A DNA stretch of 64,000 nt, from assembly GCA_965228475.1 (NCBI GenBank), contig OZ245817.1, positions 1,344,001-1,408,000 of the forward strand. The letters are read 5' to 3'. Position 1 is the first letter of the stretch. Each line of letters begins with the position of its first letter. This document shows, in pieces, positions 31,773 to 53,534 of this stretch. Below the pieces are notes generated by a model, which worked only from the letters and a program-made list of their open reading frames with translations, searched no databases and was not told the DNA's origin. The stretch is from Myxococcota bacterium (GTDB taxonomy: Bacteria > Myxococcota_A > UBA9160 > JAFDDA01). Made by a program: the position numbers and the translations under genes.

Positions 31773-34619
31773 CTACGGGGTCAGTTCTGCGATACTCTCT
31801 TCCAGTACACCTAGGTAGCTCTCATCGGTTCGGGGGAGCGATCCTTCCCGCTTCATGCGAGCCGCGATCACGCGCGCTGCCCTGAACAGCTCAAGTGCCC
31901 CTGCTGGATCGCCTGCCCTTTGGGTTGCATTTCCAAGTCTCGCGAGAGAGATCCACAGATCTCTCTCGCCCTCGGCACTCTCGGGGTCGTGCATCGCGAT
32001 TCGTCGGGCAATCGAGAGGCTCTCCCGGTAGTGCCTAGTCGCGCCTCTCAAGTTGTTCCTTTCCAGCTCGGCGTCGCCGAGGTTGCTGTGAGAGACCGAG
32101 AGATCCCTTTGGGCCTGGGTGTTGCTAGGGTCGTTCGTTGCGATTCGTTCTCGAATCGCGAGGGCCTTCCGATAGTGCTCAACCGCGCTTTCGGTGTTTC
32201 CCATTCCGAGTCGGACGCTGCCAAGCTTCTCGTGTGAAATCGAGACGCCCCTTTGGGCCTGGGTGTTGCTAGGGTCGCTCGTTGCGATCTGTTTTCTAAT
32301 CGCGAGACTCTTCCGATAGTGCTCAACGGCGCTCGCGGTGTTTCCCATTCTGTCTTGAACGTTGCCGAGTCTGTCGTGTGAAATCGAGAGGTCTCTTCGG
32401 GCCTGAGCGTTCTCGGGATCGTTCGTTGCGACTCGTTCTCGAATGGCGAGGCTCTCTCGGTAATGCTCAACGGCGCTTTCGGTTTCTCCGGTTCTAGACA
32501 GCATGTCGCCGAGTCTGACGTGGGGAATTGAGAGGTCTCTTTGGGCCTGGTTGTTCTCGGGGTCGTCTGCTGCGATTCGTTCTCGGATTGCGAGGCTTTC
32601 CCGATAGTGTTCGATGGCGCTCGCGGTGTTGCCGGTTCTGAGTTGGGCGTCCCCGAGTCTGTCGTGGGAGACTGAGAGGTCTCTCCGGGCCTGCGCGTTG
32701 TCGGGGGCGTTTGTCGCGATTCGTTGAGCGATCGTGAAGCTCTCCCGGTACTGTTCAATGGCGCTCTCGGTGCTTCCGATTCTGAGTTGGACGTCTCCGA
32801 TTCTGTGGTGGGCGACCGCAAGGTCTCTTTGAGCGTGGATGTTGTCGGGGTCGTTTGCTGCGATTTGTTCCCGGATTTCGAGGCTTTGCCGATAGTGTTC
32901 GATCGCACTTTCGGTGTTCCCGGTTCTGAGTTGAGCGTCGCCGAGGTTGATGCGGGCGACCGCGAGATCTCTTTGGGCGCGGGCGTCGTCGGAGTCGGCC
33001 GTTGCGATTCGTTGGGCAATCGCGAGGTCCTCTCGGTAGTGGGCCATAGCGCCTTCGGTGTCTCCAACTCTCGTCAGGGCGCCACCGAGGTTTGCGTGCG
33101 AGATCGAGAGGTCCCTTAGGGCCTGGGCATTGCCGGGGTCGTTCGTTGCGATTCGTTGGGCGATAGCGAGGCCCTTCCGGTAGTGCTCGATAGCGCGCTC
33201 GGTGTTTCCGATTCTGAAGTGGGCGTCGCCGAGTTTTGAGTGCGAAATCGAGAGATCTCTTCGGGCCTGAGTGCTGTTGGGCTCTTCGGTTGCAATTCGT
33301 TGGGAGATCGCAAAGCCTGCCCGATAGTGTTCGATAGCGCTTTCAGTGCTTCCGTTCCTGAGTTGGGCGTCGGCGAGTTTGTTGTGGGAGAGCGAGAGGT
33401 CTCGTTGGGCTTGGGTGTCGTCGGGGTCGTTCCTCGCTAGGAGGTTGAAGCGAGAAAGAGCCTCTTCGAGCAGGGGTACCGCCGCGTTCGGATCGTGGTT
33501 GACCGAGGCCAGTATCACGTCGGCCTTCTGAAGGAGGGCAATCGCGCGAGAGCGCGCCGAGGCCGGCGAATCGGATCCATGGGTTTCCAGGGCGTTGACG
33601 ATTTCATCTACTTCGGCCATGACCGCCTCGCGGGGGCCGATAGGCACATACCGATCCAAGACTTCGGGCAACTCGAAGTTCAGGAAATCGAGGTTGTCGT
33701 TGACTTGGTCTAAGAGAGCGTTCGCCCTGTCTCGTTGGGACTCAGCTAGCTGATACTGCCTCCAGGCAAACGCGCCAGTCACCGTTGCGGTGAGAGCGAG
33801 GATGGTCATGGCGGTACCGATCCGGCGCGCCCGCTGGGTCTTCAAGCGCTGCGCGCGCAACTGATGAGCCTTGTCGCGTTCGGTCAGTCGTTCGAGGCTA
33901 ACGCCAAGAATGCCCGCGATGATCTTCAGGCGAGCCGTGTTGATCTGCTCTTCGTAGGCGACGGTGAGGCGTTCTGCGTCGGAGCGGCTTCGGCCCGATT
34001 GTAGTAGCCGTTGTTTGTAGACGTTGGGGTGGGTGAGCCCCTTGTGGCCGTCCGGGAGACGGAAATTCGCGGCTATGGGTTCTGTGGGTCGATCGATCCG
34101 GAGTTCGCCGTCTTCGCCGACCTCGTACTGGAGCGGTTTGGGGAAGCACTCGAGGGTGCGGACGTCCTCCGGGTCCTCTTCCTTCGCGGGATCGAGGGAT
34201 GCGTTGGGTTCTCCGAGGAGGAGGGCGGCCATGACCCGATCGAACTTCCCGGTGGCTTTGAAGTGACGGATTTCTTCGGCGACGTACTTCGATTGCACGG
34301 CCCGGGGGGAGCAGAGGACGACGAGGAAGCGGGAGCGGTCGAGGGCTTCGGTGATGGCGGAGGAAAGGTCTGCATCCGCCGGTAGCGAGACTTCGTCGCG
34401 GAAGACCGGATAGATCCGGTCGGGGATGATCTCGCCGCGGTTGTTCTTCGTGCCGACGAGCTCGGCGGGAATGTCGTAGATCTCGAGCTGTTGATGGAGC
34501 CAGGTCGCCCACTGTTGGTCTTCTTCGGTGTTGTCGGCGTGCCGGTAGGAGATGAACGCGTAGTAGAAGCCCGATGCTTCACTCGCCTCCGCGGGCTGCG
34601 AAGGGTTTCCGCTACTCAC
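31773..34619 (-). CDS. TIR domain - transmembrane helix - TPR repeat protein
   Basis: AFISYRH, VFRD, SRFLVVLCSP, YVAEEI (TIR); TM IGTAMTILALTATVTGAFAW; 11 x 48-aa TPR units. Start set at GTG 34619, overlapping the cyclase stop (GTGAGTAG). Confidence 0.88.
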   Translation of the reverse strand: MSSGNPSQPAEASEASGFYYAFISYRHADNTEEDQQWATWLHQQLEIYDIPAELVGTKNNRGEIIPDRIYPVFRDEVSLPADADLSSAITEALDRSRFLVVLCSPRAVQSKYVAEEIRHFKATGKFDRVMAALLLGEPNASLDPAKEEDPEDVRTLECFPKPLQYEVGEDGELRIDRPTEPIAANFRLPDGHKGLTHPNVYKQRLLQSGRSRSDAERLTVAYEEQINTARLKIIAGILGVSLERLTERDKAHQLRAQRLKTQRARRIGTAMTILALTATVTGAFAWRQYQLAESQRDRANALLDQVNDNLDFLNFELPEVLDRYVPIGPREAVMAEVDEIVNALETHGSDSPASARSRAIALLQKADVILASVNHDPNAAVPLLEEALSRFNLLARNDPDDTQAQRDLSLSHNKLADAQLRNGSTESAIEHYRAGFAISQRIATEEPNSTQARRDLSISHSKLGDAHFRIGNTERAIEHYRKGLAIAQRIATNDPGNAQALRDLSISHANLGGALTRVGDTEGAMAHYREDLAIAQRIATADSDDARAQRDLAVARINLGDAQLRTGNTESAIEHYRQSLEIREQIAANDPDNIHAQRDLAVAHHRIGDVQLRIGSTESAIEQYRESFTIAQRIATNAPDNAQARRDLSVSHDRLGDAQLRTGNTASAIEHYRESLAIRERIAADDPENNQAQRDLSIPHVRLGDMLSRTGETESAVEHYRESLAIRERVATNDPENAQARRDLSISHDRLGNVQDRMGNTASAVEHYRKSLAIRKQIATSDPSNTQAQRGVSISHEKLGSVRLGMGNTESAVEHYRKALAIRERIATNDPSNTQAQRDLSVSHSNLGDAELERNNLRGATRHYRESLSIARRIAMHDPESAEGERDLWISLARLGNATQRAGDPAGALELFRAARVIAARMKREGSLPRTDESYLGVLEESIAELTP
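31845..33428 (-). repeat. 11 tandem 144-bp (48-aa) TPR-coding units
   Basis: Consensus DPxNxQAQRDLSISHxxLGDxxxRxGxTESAIEHYRxSLAIxxRIATN; an identical 27-nt block recurs at 32107 and 32251 (144 nt apart). Confidence 0.9.
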
Positions 34620-36534
34620 GGGCGGCTCGAAGGTGGAAGAGACGTTCCTCGCCGGCATCCTTGGGAAGGGCGTGGACGCCGACGAACTCGAGGACCCATG
34701 GCGGCTCTTCGTTTCGGCCTTCCCGCCGACTCCTGTGGTCACTCTCGGTGAGCAGGTAGGCGAAGTTCTCGGAGGCGTAGATCCGGCCGCGCACGGTGAC
34801 GGGCTCGAGCCGCGCCGCCCAGTTGACGTGGCTGCCGAACCAGTCTTCCTGTTTGGAAACCGGGTCGAACCACTTCCAGACGGGCGCGGCGTGGAGGGCG
34901 ATTCGCATGTGGAGGAGATGGTCGCCGACCTGGACGCCGTCGGCGCCGCCGGTCGCGCGTTGAAGTGCCAGGGCTAGCTGTGCGATCTGCACGACACCAT
35001 CTTCGTCGGCCGAGGCGGAGAAGATTCCGTCTCCGATGGTCTTGATGAAGGCCGGGCGAGGGGAGATTCCGTTGATCTCTTCGGCGATCTTCTCCATGAA
35101 AGCGCCGAACTTGGGCATCTCATGGTCGCCGAGGCGGGAGAAGTGTTCGATGTCCGCGAAGAGCATGGCGCCGAGCACGCGTCCCCCCTTGCCGGGGGCG
35201 TCTTTTTCGGGCGCACGGTCCCTCGAAGCGGGCGGAGCCTTGGCGTTGGGGGCAACGCGCTCGCGGAGTTCCTTGAGGTCGATCACCACGGTGGGCGGTC
35301 CCGATTCGCCCGATCTCAGGAAGTCGGCGGTTCCACCAGCGATCGGCGGCGCATCGGGGTCGGCGACGCCGACCATCGTTGGGCGGGTGTCCGGGTAGCG
35401 GTCCGCGCGTAGCTGCGCTTTCCCGCGCAGGATCTGGTTCGTCACCGCGAACAGGAAGTCGTCGCCGACGAGGTATTCCTCGCGAGTCAGGTACTGGACC
35501 GATTCGGCGTGGCTCATCGCGGCACGGAAGCGGGGGAGCCACTCGTGGGGGACGCTCGTGTCGACGAAGTCCGTGTCGCTGAAGGGAAGGACCAGGTGGA
35601 CTTCGGCGCCGCGACGAAGCATGGCTTCGGCGAAGAGCAGGTCACTGCCACCGGCAGCCGAGCAGTAGCCGACCTTCGCGTTGAGTTCTTCGAGAACGGC
35701 ATCGAGCCGGGTAGCGACCGCCGTTTCGAGTTCGGCGTCCGGTGGGAAGCGCGGCGACTCTCGGCCGGGGAGATCGATCATGTGACCGGAGAAGGCGAGG
35801 ATGCCGGGGGGCGGGAAGAGTCCGATGAGGCGGTCGGGGACGGGGATGCCGTGGTCGCGGAGAAGAGCCAGCTGCTGAAGCATCGACCTGGACTCGGCGG
35901 GTGATACTGTCTTCTCGAAGGTTCTGAGGTACGCGCGAATGGCATCTTCGTGTTGTTCCAAGAGCAGATGCGCTTCACCCGCCGTAGCATCGGCCCAGTC
36001 GTCACGCGGTTGCGACCTGAGGGCCGTCAGCACCGCCTGCGCCAGTCGGCGGGCTTCCGGCCGATCCCCCGCAAGGGTCGACATCGAAGCGGCATTGATC
36101 CCGCAGTACGTGCCGCCAGTTGCCCGGAAGCCCGCGGCGTAGGCAGCCCGGCTCGCCAGCAGTTCGTTCCGGTCGCCACTCGTTCGCCAGACATCCTTGT
36201 GAAGCCGTCCCCGCAGTCCGAGCAGCTCCTCGAGGATGCCGAGTTCCTTTCCCACGAAGCCGGCGCCGGGCAGATCGGCATCGACGTGCGGGTCGGTGTA
36301 GTGCGCGATCCGCTCCAGCGCTTCCTGGGTGGCACCGGCGTTCGCGAGCGCCAGGCCGTGGAGGTGGGCGAGTACGTGGGAGTCGCCGAAGATGTAGAGC
36401 GCACGCCGTGCCAGGTCGATCGCGGCGAAGTGCTGGCCGGCGTCGTGGAGGCGGCGGATCTCCGAGAGCCATTCTCGGGGGCTCCAGCTCCCGGTGGCGG
36501 ACTCTGGTGAGCGGGGGGGCTCGTCACGCTTCAT
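34612..36534 (-). CDS. TPR-S (MAP3K TRAF-binding/DUF4071-like) + SLOG-like + class III adenylate cyclase protein
   Basis: GLRGRLHKD...Y..GF...YCGINAA (TPR-S-like); FSGHMID...RFP...SAAGGSDLLFAE...VLPF (SLOG-like); LFADI, KTIGDG, RIALH, DWFGSHVNWAARLE (cyclase). Confidence 0.82.
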   Translation of the reverse strand: MKRDEPPRSPESATGSWSPREWLSEIRRLHDAGQHFAAIDLARRALYIFGDSHVLAHLHGLALANAGATQEALERIAHYTDPHVDADLPGAGFVGKELGILEELLGLRGRLHKDVWRTSGDRNELLASRAAYAAGFRATGGTYCGINAASMSTLAGDRPEARRLAQAVLTALRSQPRDDWADATAGEAHLLLEQHEDAIRAYLRTFEKTVSPAESRSMLQQLALLRDHGIPVPDRLIGLFPPPGILAFSGHMIDLPGRESPRFPPDAELETAVATRLDAVLEELNAKVGYCSAAGGSDLLFAEAMLRRGAEVHLVLPFSDTDFVDTSVPHEWLPRFRAAMSHAESVQYLTREEYLVGDDFLFAVTNQILRGKAQLRADRYPDTRPTMVGVADPDAPPIAGGTADFLRSGESGPPTVVIDLKELRERVAPNAKAPPASRDRAPEKDAPGKGGRVLGAMLFADIEHFSRLGDHEMPKFGAFMEKIAEEINGISPRPAFIKTIGDGIFSASADEDGVVQIAQLALALQRATGGADGVQVGDHLLHMRIALHAAPVWKWFDPVSKQEDWFGSHVNWAARLEPVTVRGRIYASENFAYLLTESDHRSRREGRNEEPPWVLEFVGVHALPKDAGEERLFHLRAARE

Positions 36535-50264: not shown

Positions 50265-53200
50265 ATGGTGCGTGCCGTCGCCATGTTGCAGCGCCTGGGG
50301 TTCGATCGGCACGAGAGCCGCGTGCTCGTGTGGGGAGCGATCACGCTCTTCCTCACGGGGTGGGCAGACGTTTCTCTGAAGAACGTCTCGGAAGCCTACT
50401 TCGTGAACAGCGTCGGACCCGAGCGGCTTCCCCTCGTGTTCCTCGCCAGTTCGGCCCTCCTGGTCGGGACGACGTGGGCTCTGGGCATCCTGATGGCTCG
50501 GAGCCAGCGGCTGCGTCTCCTGCCGCGCCTGCTCGGTGTGCTGGCCGTCGCGATCCTTCCCCTGTGGTGGCTGATCCTGAACCACGAGGGTGGAACGGAC
50601 CGCGAGATCAAGAGCGCCTACGGCCTGCTCCTGATCGCCTCGAAGCAGGTCCAGGCGCTGGCGCTCCTGTCGTTCTGGGCCGCCATCAACGATCTGGTGA
50701 ACGCCCGCCAGGCCAAGCGGGTGTTCGCTCCGCTGATGGCCGGCTGGACGCTGGGAACGATCCTCGGAAGCTTCGCATCGGATCCGCTCGCGGGCTGGCT
50801 GGGCGTTCCGGCGCTGGTCCCCGTCTCATCGGCAATGCTGATCCTCGCGGGCGTCGCGACCTATCCGCTCCGCCGCGGGCTGCCTACCCGGCTCCACGTC
50901 GGCACGCGACGACGCCTCCTCGACCTCGTGCGACCCAAGGAAGAGCGCTCGGTGTTCGGCGCGGGCGCGACGGGGTCGCCGGAGGCCGGAAGCGCCGAGG
51001 CCCCGGCGAGCGTGCGCGCGCTCTGGCGGGAGAGTGCCCTGTTCCGGCTGCTCTTCGTCACGGTGCTGCTGTCCGGGATGCTCGGCCCGATGCTCTATTT
51101 CCAGTTCCAGTGGGTCGCGGATGCGGCGACACCGGAAGGCGACGAGGGCCTGGAAGGCCTCCTCCATCTCTACTCGCTCTTCCGCGGCTGGGTGAACGTC
51201 GCCATCCTCGTCGCTCAGCTCACGGTCACCTCGACGCTCTACCGTCGTTTCGGAATCCCGCTGTCCGTCCTGATCTCGCCGCTCACCTATCTCGCCGGCT
51301 TCTTCGGGCTCTCCCGGAGCTTCGCGCTGCCGATGGGCATCGGTGCGATGTCGCTGACGAAGCTCCAGGACAACGCCGTCTTCGATCCGGCCTCCCGGGT
51401 GCTCTACAACCTCTTCCCGGACCGCCACCGGGCCCGTGCCGGGTCCTTCCTCGACGGCCCCGTGAAGCGGGGCGCCGGGGCGCTCGGCAACCTCGTGGTG
51501 ATCGTCGCACTCGAGGCCGCGTCCGTTGCCTACGTCGGCGTGGCCGGCATCGGCCTCGCGCTGATCTGGCTGCTCGCGGCGGTCGTGCTCTGGCAGACCT
51601 ATCCGCGCCTGCTGCTCGCGGCCGCGTCGAACCGCCGGACGTCGGGCGGCGAGTGGGAAGAGGGCATGCTCGACCCCTCGACGGTGCGCGCCCTGAACCC
51701 GCATCTGCTCGACCCCGACCCCGGGCGCTGTGCCCTGGCCATCGGCCTGCTCGAGGAGGCGCGCCCCGAGCTGGCGATCCCCGCGCTCGTGCACGCCTAC
51801 GGAGGGGCCCACGGGGCAACGCGCCCCCTCCTCCTCACGGCGCTCGAGGATGCGCTCGACAAGACGGTCACGACGCCGGTGCGCGACGCCGCGGCGGCCG
51901 CCGAGCTCGACCGGATTCTCGCCGAGACGCCGGATCTCCCGGCCCTCGACCGCTCCCGGCTCGTGCAGTGCTACGGCCGCGTGAGGCCGGAGGACGACCG
52001 CTCGCCGCTGCTCACCCACGCCCTCCACCACGAGGTCGCGAGCGTCCGCCTCGCCGCCGCGGGTGCCCTCGATCACGACGACCTCGACGACCGCCTGCGC
52101 GAGGCCGCGGCCAGCAGCGACCTCGCCGAACGCACCATCGCCCGCCGCGAGCTGCGCGCCGCGCTCCTGTGCGACGCCGAGGATCCGGCCTGGGAACAGC
52201 GGCTCGCGATGCTCGTCGCCATGCTCGACGACCCGGAGGAGCGCCGCCCCGCAGCGGAGGCCCTGGCCGACGTCGCGCGCCGCCACGGCGAGCGCGTCGT
52301 GCCGATCACCGAGGCCGTGCTCGAGCGGCGACACGAGACCGACGTCGCGACGCGCCGCGCGCTGCTGCGCTTCGCCGGCCACGCGGGCTGCGTCGAGCAC
52401 GCGGGCTGGCTGGTCGACCACCTCGCGTCGGACGACGAGTCCGAGGCCGATGCCGCCCGCGAAGGTCTGGTCGCCATGGGGGCCGGCATCACCGACATCC
52501 TGTTGAAGGAGGCGTCCCACGGCCGGCGCAGCAAGCGCGATGCGATCCTGCCGCTCCTGCGCGACCTCCACGTCGACCAGGACGAACTCTGGGAACTCTA
52601 CGAGCGCGAGCTCGCCGGCATCCGCAAGCTCATCGTCCAGCACCACGTGATGCGCGCGACGCCGGGCCTCGAGCTGCTCGAGCAGCGGCTCGACGAGCGC
52701 ATCGACGAAGGCCTGCACACGGCGCTCCTGCTGCTCGCCGGCCTGCGGGACCGGGACGAGTACGAGAGCCTCGCCGAGAGCCTCCCCGGCACGCCGAGCG
52801 GCCGGCGCCGGGCGACCCTGGTCGAGGTGCTCGAGGAGATCGCGACCGCCCGCGAAAAGACCGAGCTCCTGCCGTTGTTGGACGAGGATCTCGACAAGCG
52901 CTGCGCCCGGGCCGCCGGCGCGCTCGGCATCCTCGTCCCGAGCGACGAAGAGGTCCTCCAGCAGACCATGAAGAGCTCCGACGAGCTGACCCGCGTGCTG
53001 GTTGCCGGTTGCCTGCGGACGCTCGGCATGGGGCCCGTGCCCGGTGCGGCGCCCGGCGCAGTTCCATTGGCTCCCTCCGCCGATCTGGAGGAAACTGCGG
53101 ACGTGCTGAGCCCCACGGAGATCGCGCTGCAGCTCAAGGGTCTGCCCATGTTCGATGGGCTCACGACCCGGCAGCTCATGGACCTCGCCCAGGTGGTGAG

Positions 53201-53534
53201 CGAAGTGACCCATGCGCCCGACGCCACCGTCGTCAGCGAGGGCGGCATGAACGAGAGCATGTTCCTGATCGTGGACGGCAAGGTCGAGGTGCGGAAGCAG
53301 GGCCGGCGGGTCGCCGAGCTCGGCCCGGGCGAGTTCTTCGGGGAGATGTCGGTGCTCGAGCGCGCGCGCCCGAGCGCCGACGTGATCACCACGGAGACGG
53401 CGCGCCTGCTCTGCCTTCAGCGCGCGGATCTCTTCCGCCTGATGGAAGAGTTCCCGACCATCCCGATCATCATGTGCCAGACGCTCTCGCGCCGGATGCG
53501 CGAGCTGCTCGAGACGCGCTCCGAGCCTGCCTAG
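50265..53534 (+). CDS. Npt/TLC-family transporter fused to HEAT-like repeats and a C-terminal cyclic-nucleotide-binding domain
   Basis: About 12 TM segments with FWAAINDL...QAKRVF; helical repeat middle; FLIVDGKVEV...LGPGEFFGEMSVLERARPSADV (cNMP). Confidence 0.85.
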   Translation: MVRAVAMLQRLGFDRHESRVLVWGAITLFLTGWADVSLKNVSEAYFVNSVGPERLPLVFLASSALLVGTTWALGILMARSQRLRLLPRLLGVLAVAILPLWWLILNHEGGTDREIKSAYGLLLIASKQVQALALLSFWAAINDLVNARQAKRVFAPLMAGWTLGTILGSFASDPLAGWLGVPALVPVSSAMLILAGVATYPLRRGLPTRLHVGTRRRLLDLVRPKEERSVFGAGATGSPEAGSAEAPASVRALWRESALFRLLFVTVLLSGMLGPMLYFQFQWVADAATPEGDEGLEGLLHLYSLFRGWVNVAILVAQLTVTSTLYRRFGIPLSVLISPLTYLAGFFGLSRSFALPMGIGAMSLTKLQDNAVFDPASRVLYNLFPDRHRARAGSFLDGPVKRGAGALGNLVVIVALEAASVAYVGVAGIGLALIWLLAAVVLWQTYPRLLLAAASNRRTSGGEWEEGMLDPSTVRALNPHLLDPDPGRCALAIGLLEEARPELAIPALVHAYGGAHGATRPLLLTALEDALDKTVTTPVRDAAAAAELDRILAETPDLPALDRSRLVQCYGRVRPEDDRSPLLTHALHHEVASVRLAAAGALDHDDLDDRLREAAASSDLAERTIARRELRAALLCDAEDPAWEQRLAMLVAMLDDPEERRPAAEALADVARRHGERVVPITEAVLERRHETDVATRRALLRFAGHAGCVEHAGWLVDHLASDDESEADAAREGLVAMGAGITDILLKEASHGRRSKRDAILPLLRDLHVDQDELWELYERELAGIRKLIVQHHVMRATPGLELLEQRLDERIDEGLHTALLLLAGLRDRDEYESLAESLPGTPSGRRRATLVEVLEEIATAREKTELLPLLDEDLDKRCARAAGALGILVPSDEEVLQQTMKSSDELTRVLVAGCLRTLGMGPVPGAAPGAVPLAPSADLEETADVLSPTEIALQLKGLPMFDGLTTRQLMDLAQVVSEVTHAPDATVVSEGGMNESMFLIVDGKVEVRKQGRRVAELGPGEFFGEMSVLERARPSADVITTETARLLCLQRADLFRLMEEFPTIPIIMCQTLSRRMRELLETRSEPA

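Follow-up and report, generated by a model that had tools for sequence, protein, structure and literature searches.

Two overlapping genes on the minus strand of contig OZ245817.1 (assembly GCA_965228475.1), within the 64,000-nt stretch of Myxococcota DNA analysed here (the window; contig positions 1,344,001 to 1,408,000), raise the question of whether a membrane receptor with a TIR domain can pass its signal to a nucleotide cyclase encoded beside it. Gene 1 encodes a soluble protein with TPR-S, SLOG and class III cyclase domains, and gene 2 a protein with a TIR domain, a transmembrane (TM) helix and a TPR array. An earlier interpretation of the DNA letters (the sequence-only reading) had taken the pair for a candidate conflict or immune signalling system in which a TIR product is sensed by the SLOG domain and switches on cAMP synthesis. 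What is conserved between the two genes is the partnership of domain types; the pair itself is not fixed. We favour a mechanism in which a TIR product would bind the SLOG or TPR-S domain and thereby start cAMP synthesis, the two proteins relaying an alarm across the inner membrane without killing the cell, and judge it about equally likely to be right or wrong.

Domain make-up of the two proteins

In the N-terminal region of gene 1, Pfam recognises TPR-S (PF20308) at residues 37–151 (E 5e-13), with MAP3K_TRAF_bd below the cut-off. The AlphaFold2 (AF2) model of the protein is confident (predicted local distance difference test, pLDDT, 88.8; predicted template modelling score, pTM, 0.88), and its residues 6–238 superpose on the central regulatory region of ASK1 (5ulm; Z 17.0, root-mean-square deviation (rmsd) 4.0, 214 aligned residues). 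The sequence-only reading had named an ASK1-like TRAF-binding/TPR-S region and a SLOG-like domain, and both assignments are borne out. Residues 242–429 match Bacillus subtilis YpsA (2nx2; Z 18.5, rmsd 3.0, 162 aligned), and the Atlas neighbours of this middle domain are DUF1273/YpsA clusters (0.85–0.91). The middle domain owes its name to the fold search only, sequence profiles being weak: neither gene 1 nor its 36-row alignment has a Pfam SLOG match, Pfam YpsA/YAcAr matches occur only in relatives (best E 2e-4), and a 10-row SLOG alignment gave no meaningful match in PDB. NCBIfam returned nothing for gene 1, Foldseek returned cyclases only, and no TM segment was found in the protein (best Kyte–Doolittle (KD) score 1.09). 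The GxD/E motif of YpsA-clade SLOGs (PMC6459960) is present as G296-x-D298, and gene 1 has both the fold and the motif by which the SLOG superfamily and its YpsA clade are recognised.

Conservation was assessed in the best 148 full-length relatives from a 50%-cluster library (150 listed, minus P0189 and the seed P0026). The SLOG residues G250, H251, G296, D298, E303, P317 and G401 are kept in 143–148 of them (G296 in 148, D298 in 147, H251 in 143), and the fuller set G250-H251, G296-x-D298, E303, P317 and G401-T402 in 126–148. The cyclase residues D461 (148/148), D502 (147/148) and R575 (148/148) are kept as well; the pocket and the enzyme are therefore both under selection. TPR-S is as good a candidate for the sensor as SLOG. 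A caspase replaces the cyclase behind TPR-S–SLOG in P0052 and P0055. One relative of 2,884 aa (P0189) contains two TPR-S–SLOG–cyclase units, and three TPR-S–SLOG proteins (P0036, P0038, P0039) end in a cyclase-like domain without metal-binding motifs.

The C-terminal domain of gene 1 is matched above the cut-off by Pfam Guanylate_cyc at residues 456–606 (E 1.5e-9), and residues 448–640 superpose on CyaB with Z 20.5 (rmsd 2.5, 175 aligned), compared with Z 13.6–15.7 for Pycsar cyclase structures. The active-site residues listed in the earlier reading are all found by alignment, Pfam and fold: the two metal-binding Asp (D461, D502) and N571-x3-R575 that characterise class III cyclases, the Lys of KTIGD (K498) and the Asp of DWFG (D564). 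In the alignment with 6aoa, a rhodopsin cyclase converted to ATP, the counterparts of the last two are K497 and D566. Both of the sites known to specify the purine (bioRxiv 2026.08.12.744502) are thus occupied by ATP-type residues, which point to 3′,5′-cAMP as the predicted product.

The claim of cAMP synthesis stands, as a prediction, for the gene 1 copy and does not extend to its family, most of which lacks the Lys/Asp pair. Site 498 is Asn in 135/148 relatives and Lys in 1/148, while site 500 is Trp in 141/148. A second set comprised 137 rows in which D502 and R575 are intact; 86 of them are Asn/Asn and 14 Lys/Asp, the GTDB rows (80) having been selected with a pattern that admitted N, K or E. 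The Lys/Asp label requires four changes on a FastTree tree, in which gene 1 sits on a long branch surrounded by Asn/Asn rows. Family cyclases with the Asn/Trp/Asn pocket may make a cyclic nucleotide other than cAMP. The possibility that the cyclase domain had been swapped in from a housekeeping cyclase was ruled out by a leave-one-out profile, which scored 156 bits against at most 63 for the genome's other cyclases, and by the tree, in which the domain nests within its own family, on the long branch. This family comprises 3,293 clusters at 50% identity (E up to 1e-30, partial architectures included) and has no solved close relative. A model of the cyclase homodimer with ATP and Mg scored 0.85, the best of three controls reaching 0.52; the score mark is attained by 21 of 30 solved pairs and none of 23 single chains, and the runs agreed in at least 91% of contacts with pLDDT of at least 88. 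This pass probably reflects likeness to solved class III dimers.

The TIR domain of gene 2 is assigned from sequence profiles, with Pfam TIR_2 (PF13676) at residues 22–135 (E 3e-10) and PF08937 (E 1.4e-7); the fold search with gene 2 returned TPR proteins only. In the query and the best 120 of 596 homologue matches, F22, S24, Y25 and H27 (FxSYxH), D75, S110 and E116 are each present in 121/121 sequences. The Glu that the earlier reading placed at the catalytic position of YVAEEI can be specified as the second one of the motif, E116 being invariant (121/121) and E115 not (47/121). The single TM helix of the proposed Toll-like topology follows a basic stretch and reaches a KD score of at least 1.6 in 120/120 homologues, whereas the gene 2 copy is borderline (1.59) and its helix (residues 267–285) has an AF2 pLDDT below 50. 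A basic stretch on the TIR side of the helix would place the TIR domain in the cytoplasm and the TPR array outside. The count of eleven TPRs was correct: 11 units of 48 aa span residues 396–923, the DNA repeats with a 144-bp period (10.1 copies at 31981–33430), and helix pairs run across the units in the gene 2 model. In homologues the TPRs are exchanged for WD40 (P0081, P0099), ankyrin (P0112, P0113) or FGE-sulfatase-type (P0183) domains, and the TIR-TM family appears from these sequences to join a constant enzyme to a variable sensor.

The two genes share eight nucleotides, GTGAGTAG (minus strand), in which TAG is the stop codon of gene 1 and GTG is in frame with gene 2. The overlap at 34612–34619 is real; the translational coupling that had been read into it is what such an overlap suggests. 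An alternative in-frame GTG for gene 2 lies upstream, at 34742; the longer product was judged less likely because many close homologues start some 10–20 residues before the TIR domain, which favours 34619.

Table 1. Features of the gene pair (window positions; residue numbers refer to the encoded protein).
Feature	Positions	Strand	Basis
Gene 1, 640 aa: TPR-S / YpsA-type SLOG / class III nucleotide cyclase, soluble	34612..36534	(-)	ORF (open reading frame), Pfam, AF2 fold
TPR-S / ASK1-like TPR region, residues 6–238	35821..36519	(-)	PF20308; VIA Z 17.0 to 5ulm, 15.5 to 8qgy
YpsA-clade SLOG, residues 242–429	35248..35811	(-)	VIA Z 18.5 to 2nx2; Atlas neighbours
Class III cyclase, residues 448–640; D461, D502, N571, R575, K625; ATP-type K498, D564	34615..35193	(-)	Pfam, fold, alignment
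8-nt overlap, gene 2 start and gene 1 stop	34612..34619	(-)	Sequence
Gene 2, 948 aa: TIR–TM–TPR array	31773..34619	(-)	ORF, Pfam, model
TIR with family-specific insertions and C-terminal extension, residues 19–253; E116 at catalytic position	33861..34565	(-)	PF13676, PF08937
Single TM helix (predicted), residues 267–285, after basic stretch	33765..33821	(-)	KD, sequence
Eleven 48-aa TPR units, residues 396–923, putative periplasmic sensor	31851..33434	(-)	Repeat period, unit list, model

Partners of the two gene families in other genomes

Neighbours of gene 1 relatives were surveyed at the best 80 of 584 confirmed GTDB loci, with Pfam on 134 chosen neighbours and a local TIR profile on all ORFs; the gene caller was simple and misses some genes, such as the TIR genes of L120 and L121. 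A TIR or DUF4062 gene lies within three genes at 22/80 loci (14 TIR, 8 DUF4062 or DUF4062-like, four of the DUF4062-like assignments resting on 39–84% identity to L012). The background is about 1% per 16-kb stretch, given three TIR_2 genes in the 5.0-Mb host genome. Ten of these 22 neighbours are adjacent, on the same strand and less than 300 bp away, and at L084 the neighbouring genes overlap by 4 bp. Five loci (L037, L038, L040, L054, L080) have a member of the same TIR-TM family as gene 2. On a tree of 84 gene 1 rows (L072 and L083 dropped as short), a TIR-fold neighbour occurs in 1/36 members of an alphaproteobacterial Magnetospirillum/Holosporales clade compared with 21/42 of the other GTDB rows, which are scattered over at least five phyla. 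The TIR label needs 13 changes on this tree, and the pairing is therefore not one inherited block.

From the side of gene 2, clustering of 77 metagenome loci at 90% identity left 53 clusters, of which 46 have over 1.5 kb of flanking sequence on one side and 24 on both. A related SLOG lies within 6 kb in 11/53 clusters. Seven of the 11 were found by a profile built from gene 1 relatives; the set behind this profile took in the full cyclase genes of L116, L117, L138 and L154, which profile A1 had already found independently. The SLOG of L104 was found by a second profile of which it is not a seed, and those of L115, L157 and L162, linked by BLAST at E 1e-8 to 1e-17, are seeds of that second profile. 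The same SLOG profiles gave no second match in the host genome. The domain fused to the SLOG varies: a cyclase in three clusters (L116/L117, L138, L154), a SLATT-like TM region in five genes (L115, L138, L157, L162, L174; Pfam SLATT in L174 only) and a TrkA-N/RyR channel in two clusters (L104, L153/L155). Two clusters have the SLOG beside a separate TPR-S gene, and three further clusters have TrkA-N/RyR or SLATT-like neighbours in which no SLOG was detected. Varied effectors on a shared SLOG beside TIR-TM genes form the picture of a generator whose signal reaches interchangeable outputs through a common sensor.

A relay from TIR to SLOG to cyclase thus has comparative support in neighbours that recur in both directions, and the idea of a fixed two-gene system does not survive the same survey. 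The conservation of the pairing, which the earlier reading had left to be checked, is seen in the 22/80 and 11/53 counts, and none of the results that this reading had named as refuting it turned up in the checks made. The partners are interchangeable on both sides, and in a sample of the phylum only 2/11 relatives of gene 1 have a TIR-fold neighbour.

Several loci deserve description in their own right. The SLATT-like SLOG fusions directly adjoin the TIR-TM genes; they are degenerate in L145 and L165, and L174 adds a patatin. A channel-like protein with N-terminal TM, TrkA-N and RyR, and with or without a C-terminal SLOG, is found beside TIR-TM genes at L104:5974–14431, L153/L155, L135, L143, L156/L158 and L080; these TrkA-N/RyR neighbours may relate to the ion-channel type X of Thoeris. 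An operon of TIR, nSTAND1-WD40 and RyR-TPR-S-SLOG-cyclase genes (L100:4467–11976, genome G031) belongs to the same order as the host. In L031:3319–4707 and L041:10–1110, a SIR2-TIR gene and, after it, nSTAND1 and TPR genes precede a cyclase whose first specificity site is Lys. An AAA/STAND-type ATPase is fused ahead of TPR-S/cyclase at L191:7550–10639, L192:8639–11746, L197:8488–11136 and L198:40–2598, and offers a different input, one for which no TIR neighbour is required. Magnetospirillum-type relatives (L010, L013, L014, L018, L021) carry acidic repeat tails of 100–600 aa after the cyclase and have a SET-domain gene upstream on the opposite strand. In Holosporaceae metagenome-assembled genomes the position of the gene 1 relative is stable, and in most of them it diverges from a receiver/histidine-kinase gene (L044, L053, L055–L058, L060, L064, L068, L071, L075, L079, L082, L086).

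Proposed relay, rival explanations and known systems

In the mechanism that we favour, the TPR array of gene 2 would bind an extracytoplasmic ligand or damage cue and cluster the receptor. The cytoplasmic TIR domains, to judge from the invariant Glu and TIR biochemistry, would then cleave NAD+ to an ADP-ribose derivative, which, as the fold, the conserved pocket and the gene context suggest, would bind the YpsA-type SLOG of gene 1, its TPR-S or both. Binding would release the C-terminal cyclase, modelled as a homodimer, to make 3′,5′-cAMP by means of K498/D564. Because no cyclic nucleoside monophosphate (cNMP)-binding effector is encoded beside the pair, the cAMP would be read by the host's own receptors and, as an alarm raised by a threat or by envelope stress, would reprogram the cell rather than act as a suicide switch. 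The host genome has 14 cNMP-binding matches, none adjacent to the pair. Window positions 50265–53534, 14 kb past the gene 1 start, encode a membrane protein of 1,089 aa whose C-terminal domain is cNMP-binding.

There is precedent for such sensing: the SLOG of ThsA binds TIR-made 3′-cyclic ADP-ribose (3′cADPR; bioRxiv 2025.12.03.692087), and YpsA-like SLOGs have been linked to cADPR sensing (PMC9503650). Several observations weigh against the favoured mechanism. The 3′cADPR precedent cannot be carried over to gene 1, because its SLOG is YpsA-type and not of the STALD type of ThsA. In BcTir/BcTpr it is the TPR protein, not the TIR, that is reported to turn over NAD+ (bioRxiv 2023.05.26.542521). 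The TM helix is weak in the gene 2 copy. No SLOG neighbour was seen in 42/53 TIR-family clusters (24/53 having more than 1.5 kb on both sides), and these include most of the closest relatives of gene 2, at 70–82% identity. In an unbiased sample of 400 phylum genomes, 10 of which carry 11 gene 1 relatives, only two relatives have a TIR-fold neighbour (G031 and G076; G076 and L042 are one genome). Of the others, four carry a fused AAA/STAND ATPase, two belong to operons of two-component or partner-switch genes (one of these beside a cNMP-binding protein) and three have an ordinary or insertion sequence (IS)-flanked context. The SLOG motifs are still kept in the 35/36 members of the Magnetospirillum/Holosporales clade that have no TIR neighbour. 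The orientation of the pair varies (tandem in either order, divergent, convergent), and no defence island was found at the locus or among the 130 flanking genes of relatives scanned.

The closest known design is type I Thoeris, in which a TIR with a catalytic Glu likewise lies beside a SLOG protein with an enzymatic partner domain and a signal generator acts on a sensor-effector (bioRxiv 2025.12.03.692087). A TIR with a catalytic Glu next to a SLOG-bearing protein, as Thoeris is described, is what the pair has. Unlike type I Thoeris, its TIR is part of a membrane receptor with a repeat array, its SLOG is YpsA-type and not STALD (PMC7272460, PMC13276650), and the gated enzyme is a cyclase with a predicted second messenger in place of the SIR2 NADase of ThsA. 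PADLOC gave no ThsA/ThsB match; ThsA is defined by SIR2 and a STALD SLOG, and gene 1 has no SIR2. Thoeris types III (a SLOG effector with TIRs), VII (SLATT) and X (ion channel) match other partners of the gene 2 family. They differ from this pair in that the type III SLOG is described as SMF/DprA-type (PMC13276650) and that, in the available parts of their descriptions, none includes a cyclase and the TIRs are not described as TM receptors.

A Thoeris-like anti-phage system is the first alternative and an unlikely one: on binding of a TIR signal to SLOG, the cyclase would poison the cell or arrest its growth, by draining ATP or flooding the cell with cAMP. In other proteins the place of the cyclase next to SLOG is taken by SLATT-like TM, ion-channel or caspase domains, classes that serve as effectors in Thoeris (types VII, X and IV), and the patchy spread (1/60 and 10/400 genomes, the gene 2 TIR in 0/400), foreign codon use and low GC content at third codon positions (GC3) would suit such a system. 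It fits poorly with the neighbours of the pair (hpnN, amidohydrolase, serine hydrolase, ArsS, rRNA operon region) and with the failure to find any relative in viral contigs or plasmids, and cAMP from one of about 15 cyclase genes in the genome is an unlikely poison. PADLOC matched neither gene 1 nor any of 14 SLOG/RyR partner proteins of relatives (0/14). At 1e-10 it matched 10 of 130 flanking genes of relatives, chosen from about 240 candidates mainly by coding score, and these matches were judged to be mostly generic domains (helicases, response regulators, a kinase, a methylase) with one patatin. The immune or conflict role attributed to the pair therefore finds no support in its context, there being no PADLOC match for gene 1 and no defence island here or around its relatives.

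The TIR-free clades bear on a second alternative, by which gene 1 would be a general NAD+/ADP-ribose or nucleotide-status sensor cyclase with TIR as one optional input, the two products needing no interaction; we consider this distinctly unlikely. The Magnetospirillum and Holosporales clades are vertical, with stable non-immune neighbours, other neighbours include histidine kinases, an anti-sigma kinase, SpoIIE and a cNMP-binding protein, and the SLOG superfamily binds or processes many nucleotides (PMC9503650, PMC6459960), all of which such a sensor would accommodate. It leaves unexplained the 8-nt overlap, the low GC3 common to both genes and the frequency of TIR-fold neighbours, which far exceeds background whichever of the two genes the survey starts from.

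In the systems that combine TIR and TPR (BcTir/BcTpr and ThsI of type VIII Thoeris) a TPR sensor is likewise predicted for TIR signalling, and YspA-Tpr and Tir-Tpr assemblies have been reported. We take the TPR of these systems to be Pfam TPR-S. Their partners differ from those seen here, being a hydrolase, patatin, LSDAT or calcineurin, and the available parts of the descriptions name no cyclase and no membrane TIR receptor. In papers that cite Burroughs and Aravind (2020), TPR-S is linked to TIR/SLOG-type NAD-processing domains, and PF20308 and the TIR neighbours agree with this for gene 1; the pair is part of the TIR/TPR sensor network that those citing papers attribute to Burroughs and Aravind. 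The available text of PMC7159879 and PMC8195603 does not mention the TPR-S–SLOG–cyclase layout, and no description was found in the literature searched, a search that lay outside Burroughs 2015/2020, figures and preprint supplements. The third alternative couples the genes by contact, TPR-S binding the activated TIR, or has an enzymatic SLOG cleave the TIR product or make a signal, with the cyclase reporting turnover. It is improbable. BcTir and BcTpr work as a complex in which the TPR protein uses NAD+ (bioRxiv 2023.05.26.542521), some SLOGs are N-glycosidases or predicted signal generators (PMC9503650), and an RyR-fused subgroup (P0057–P0063) combines a degenerate SLOG with an intact ATP-type cyclase; the variety of unrelated TIR folds among the partners (TIR_2 kinds, DUF4062, SIR2-TIR) fits a diffusible small molecule better. 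The TPR-S–SLOG–cyclase layout was possibly anticipated computationally; Burroughs and Aravind (2015, 2020) reportedly drew many such fusions.

The reverse, Pycsar-like direction, in which a phage-sensing cyclase would use its cyclic nucleotide to turn on the TIR, an effector that depletes NAD+, shares with Pycsar/Pucsar a class III cyclase and a TIR in one locus (bioRxiv 2026.08.12.744502) and is very improbable: it was rejected because neither gene 2 nor the adjacent genes have a cNMP-binding domain (the nearest match is 17 kb away, in an unrelated gene) and no PycC profile matches gene 1, whose cyclase domain is matched with higher scores by housekeeping than by Pycsar cyclases in the fold comparison above. 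In Pycsar/Pucsar the upstream component is the cyclase, and it is the TIR that has the cNMP-binding domain (bioRxiv 2026.08.12.744502), and the gene 1 cyclase differs further in its purine (ATP) residues and sensor domains. As the sequence-only reading held, the pair matches neither Thoeris nor Pycsar, lacking both the SIR2–STALD make-up of ThsA and a cNMP-binding effector; by analogy it would work like Thoeris without being any defined type of either. ASK1 (MAP3K5) and B. subtilis YpsA resemble gene 1 in the folds of the TPR-S region and the SLOG, with GxD/E kept; the likeness is confined to single domains (15–20% identity), and gene 1 has no kinase and no gpsB link.

To return to the favoured mechanism, what appears new here, and not unique to this genome, is that signalling from TIR to SLOG would have a membrane receptor as its generator and a cyclase as its effector. 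A broader proposal is tentative and less probable than not: a bacterial class of Toll-like receptors, with TIR inside and swappable TPR, WD40 or ankyrin domains outside, would act through an ADPR-type messenger on a second-messenger cascade, the gene 1 copy having switched to ATP and the cAMP–CRP system of the host. Its messenger is possibly an undescribed one, read by a YpsA-type SLOG or an ASK1-like TPR-S. Bacterial TIR signalling as so far characterised, in the literature consulted here, uses one messenger and then a killing or arresting effector. If correct, the proposal would add a serial two-messenger pathway and a non-suicidal branch, in which NAD-derived and cyclic-nucleotide messengers are chained, starting at a surface receptor. 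Because gene 1 has an ATP-type pocket, ligand binding could be readable in an Escherichia coli cya mutant on indicator plates, and this copy would serve as a cheap ligand screen for YpsA-type SLOGs, ASK1-like TPR-S and TIR products that current assays miss.

Genomic setting

The host genome is a single contig of 5.0 Mb and 96% complete. GC3 is 0.805 in gene 1 (lowest 2%) and 0.708 in gene 2 (lowest 1%), compared with a mean of 0.922 ± 0.038 over 506 sampled genes. A gene 1 relative is present in 1/60 related genomes and in at least 10/400 phylum genomes, the latter a floor set by a stricter first look; the TIR of gene 2 was found in 0/400 with a single-protein query. The patchy spread and atypical codon use suggest that the pair is an accessory and probably acquired unit. 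Genomes of the same genus or family are too distant for synteny at the insertion site (hpnN 40–44% identical, with several paralogues). No sigma-70 promoter was found at the locus, where terminator-like sites are at chance level (8 vs 5.5).

An hpnN-like transporter and an amidohydrolase are encoded upstream of the pair; on the downstream side are genes for a serine hydrolase and an ArsS-like radical SAM protein, and a stretch of low GC. In the last (about 23000–29400 of the window, GC 0.55–0.62), the ORFs are the typical antisense frames of an rRNA operon, and the stretch reads as one. The ArsS-like gene (29684–30444) is apparently split over two frames. Its 172-aa ORF covers only profile positions 2–109 of 303, and the split appears to reflect a frameshift, a deletion or an assembly error.

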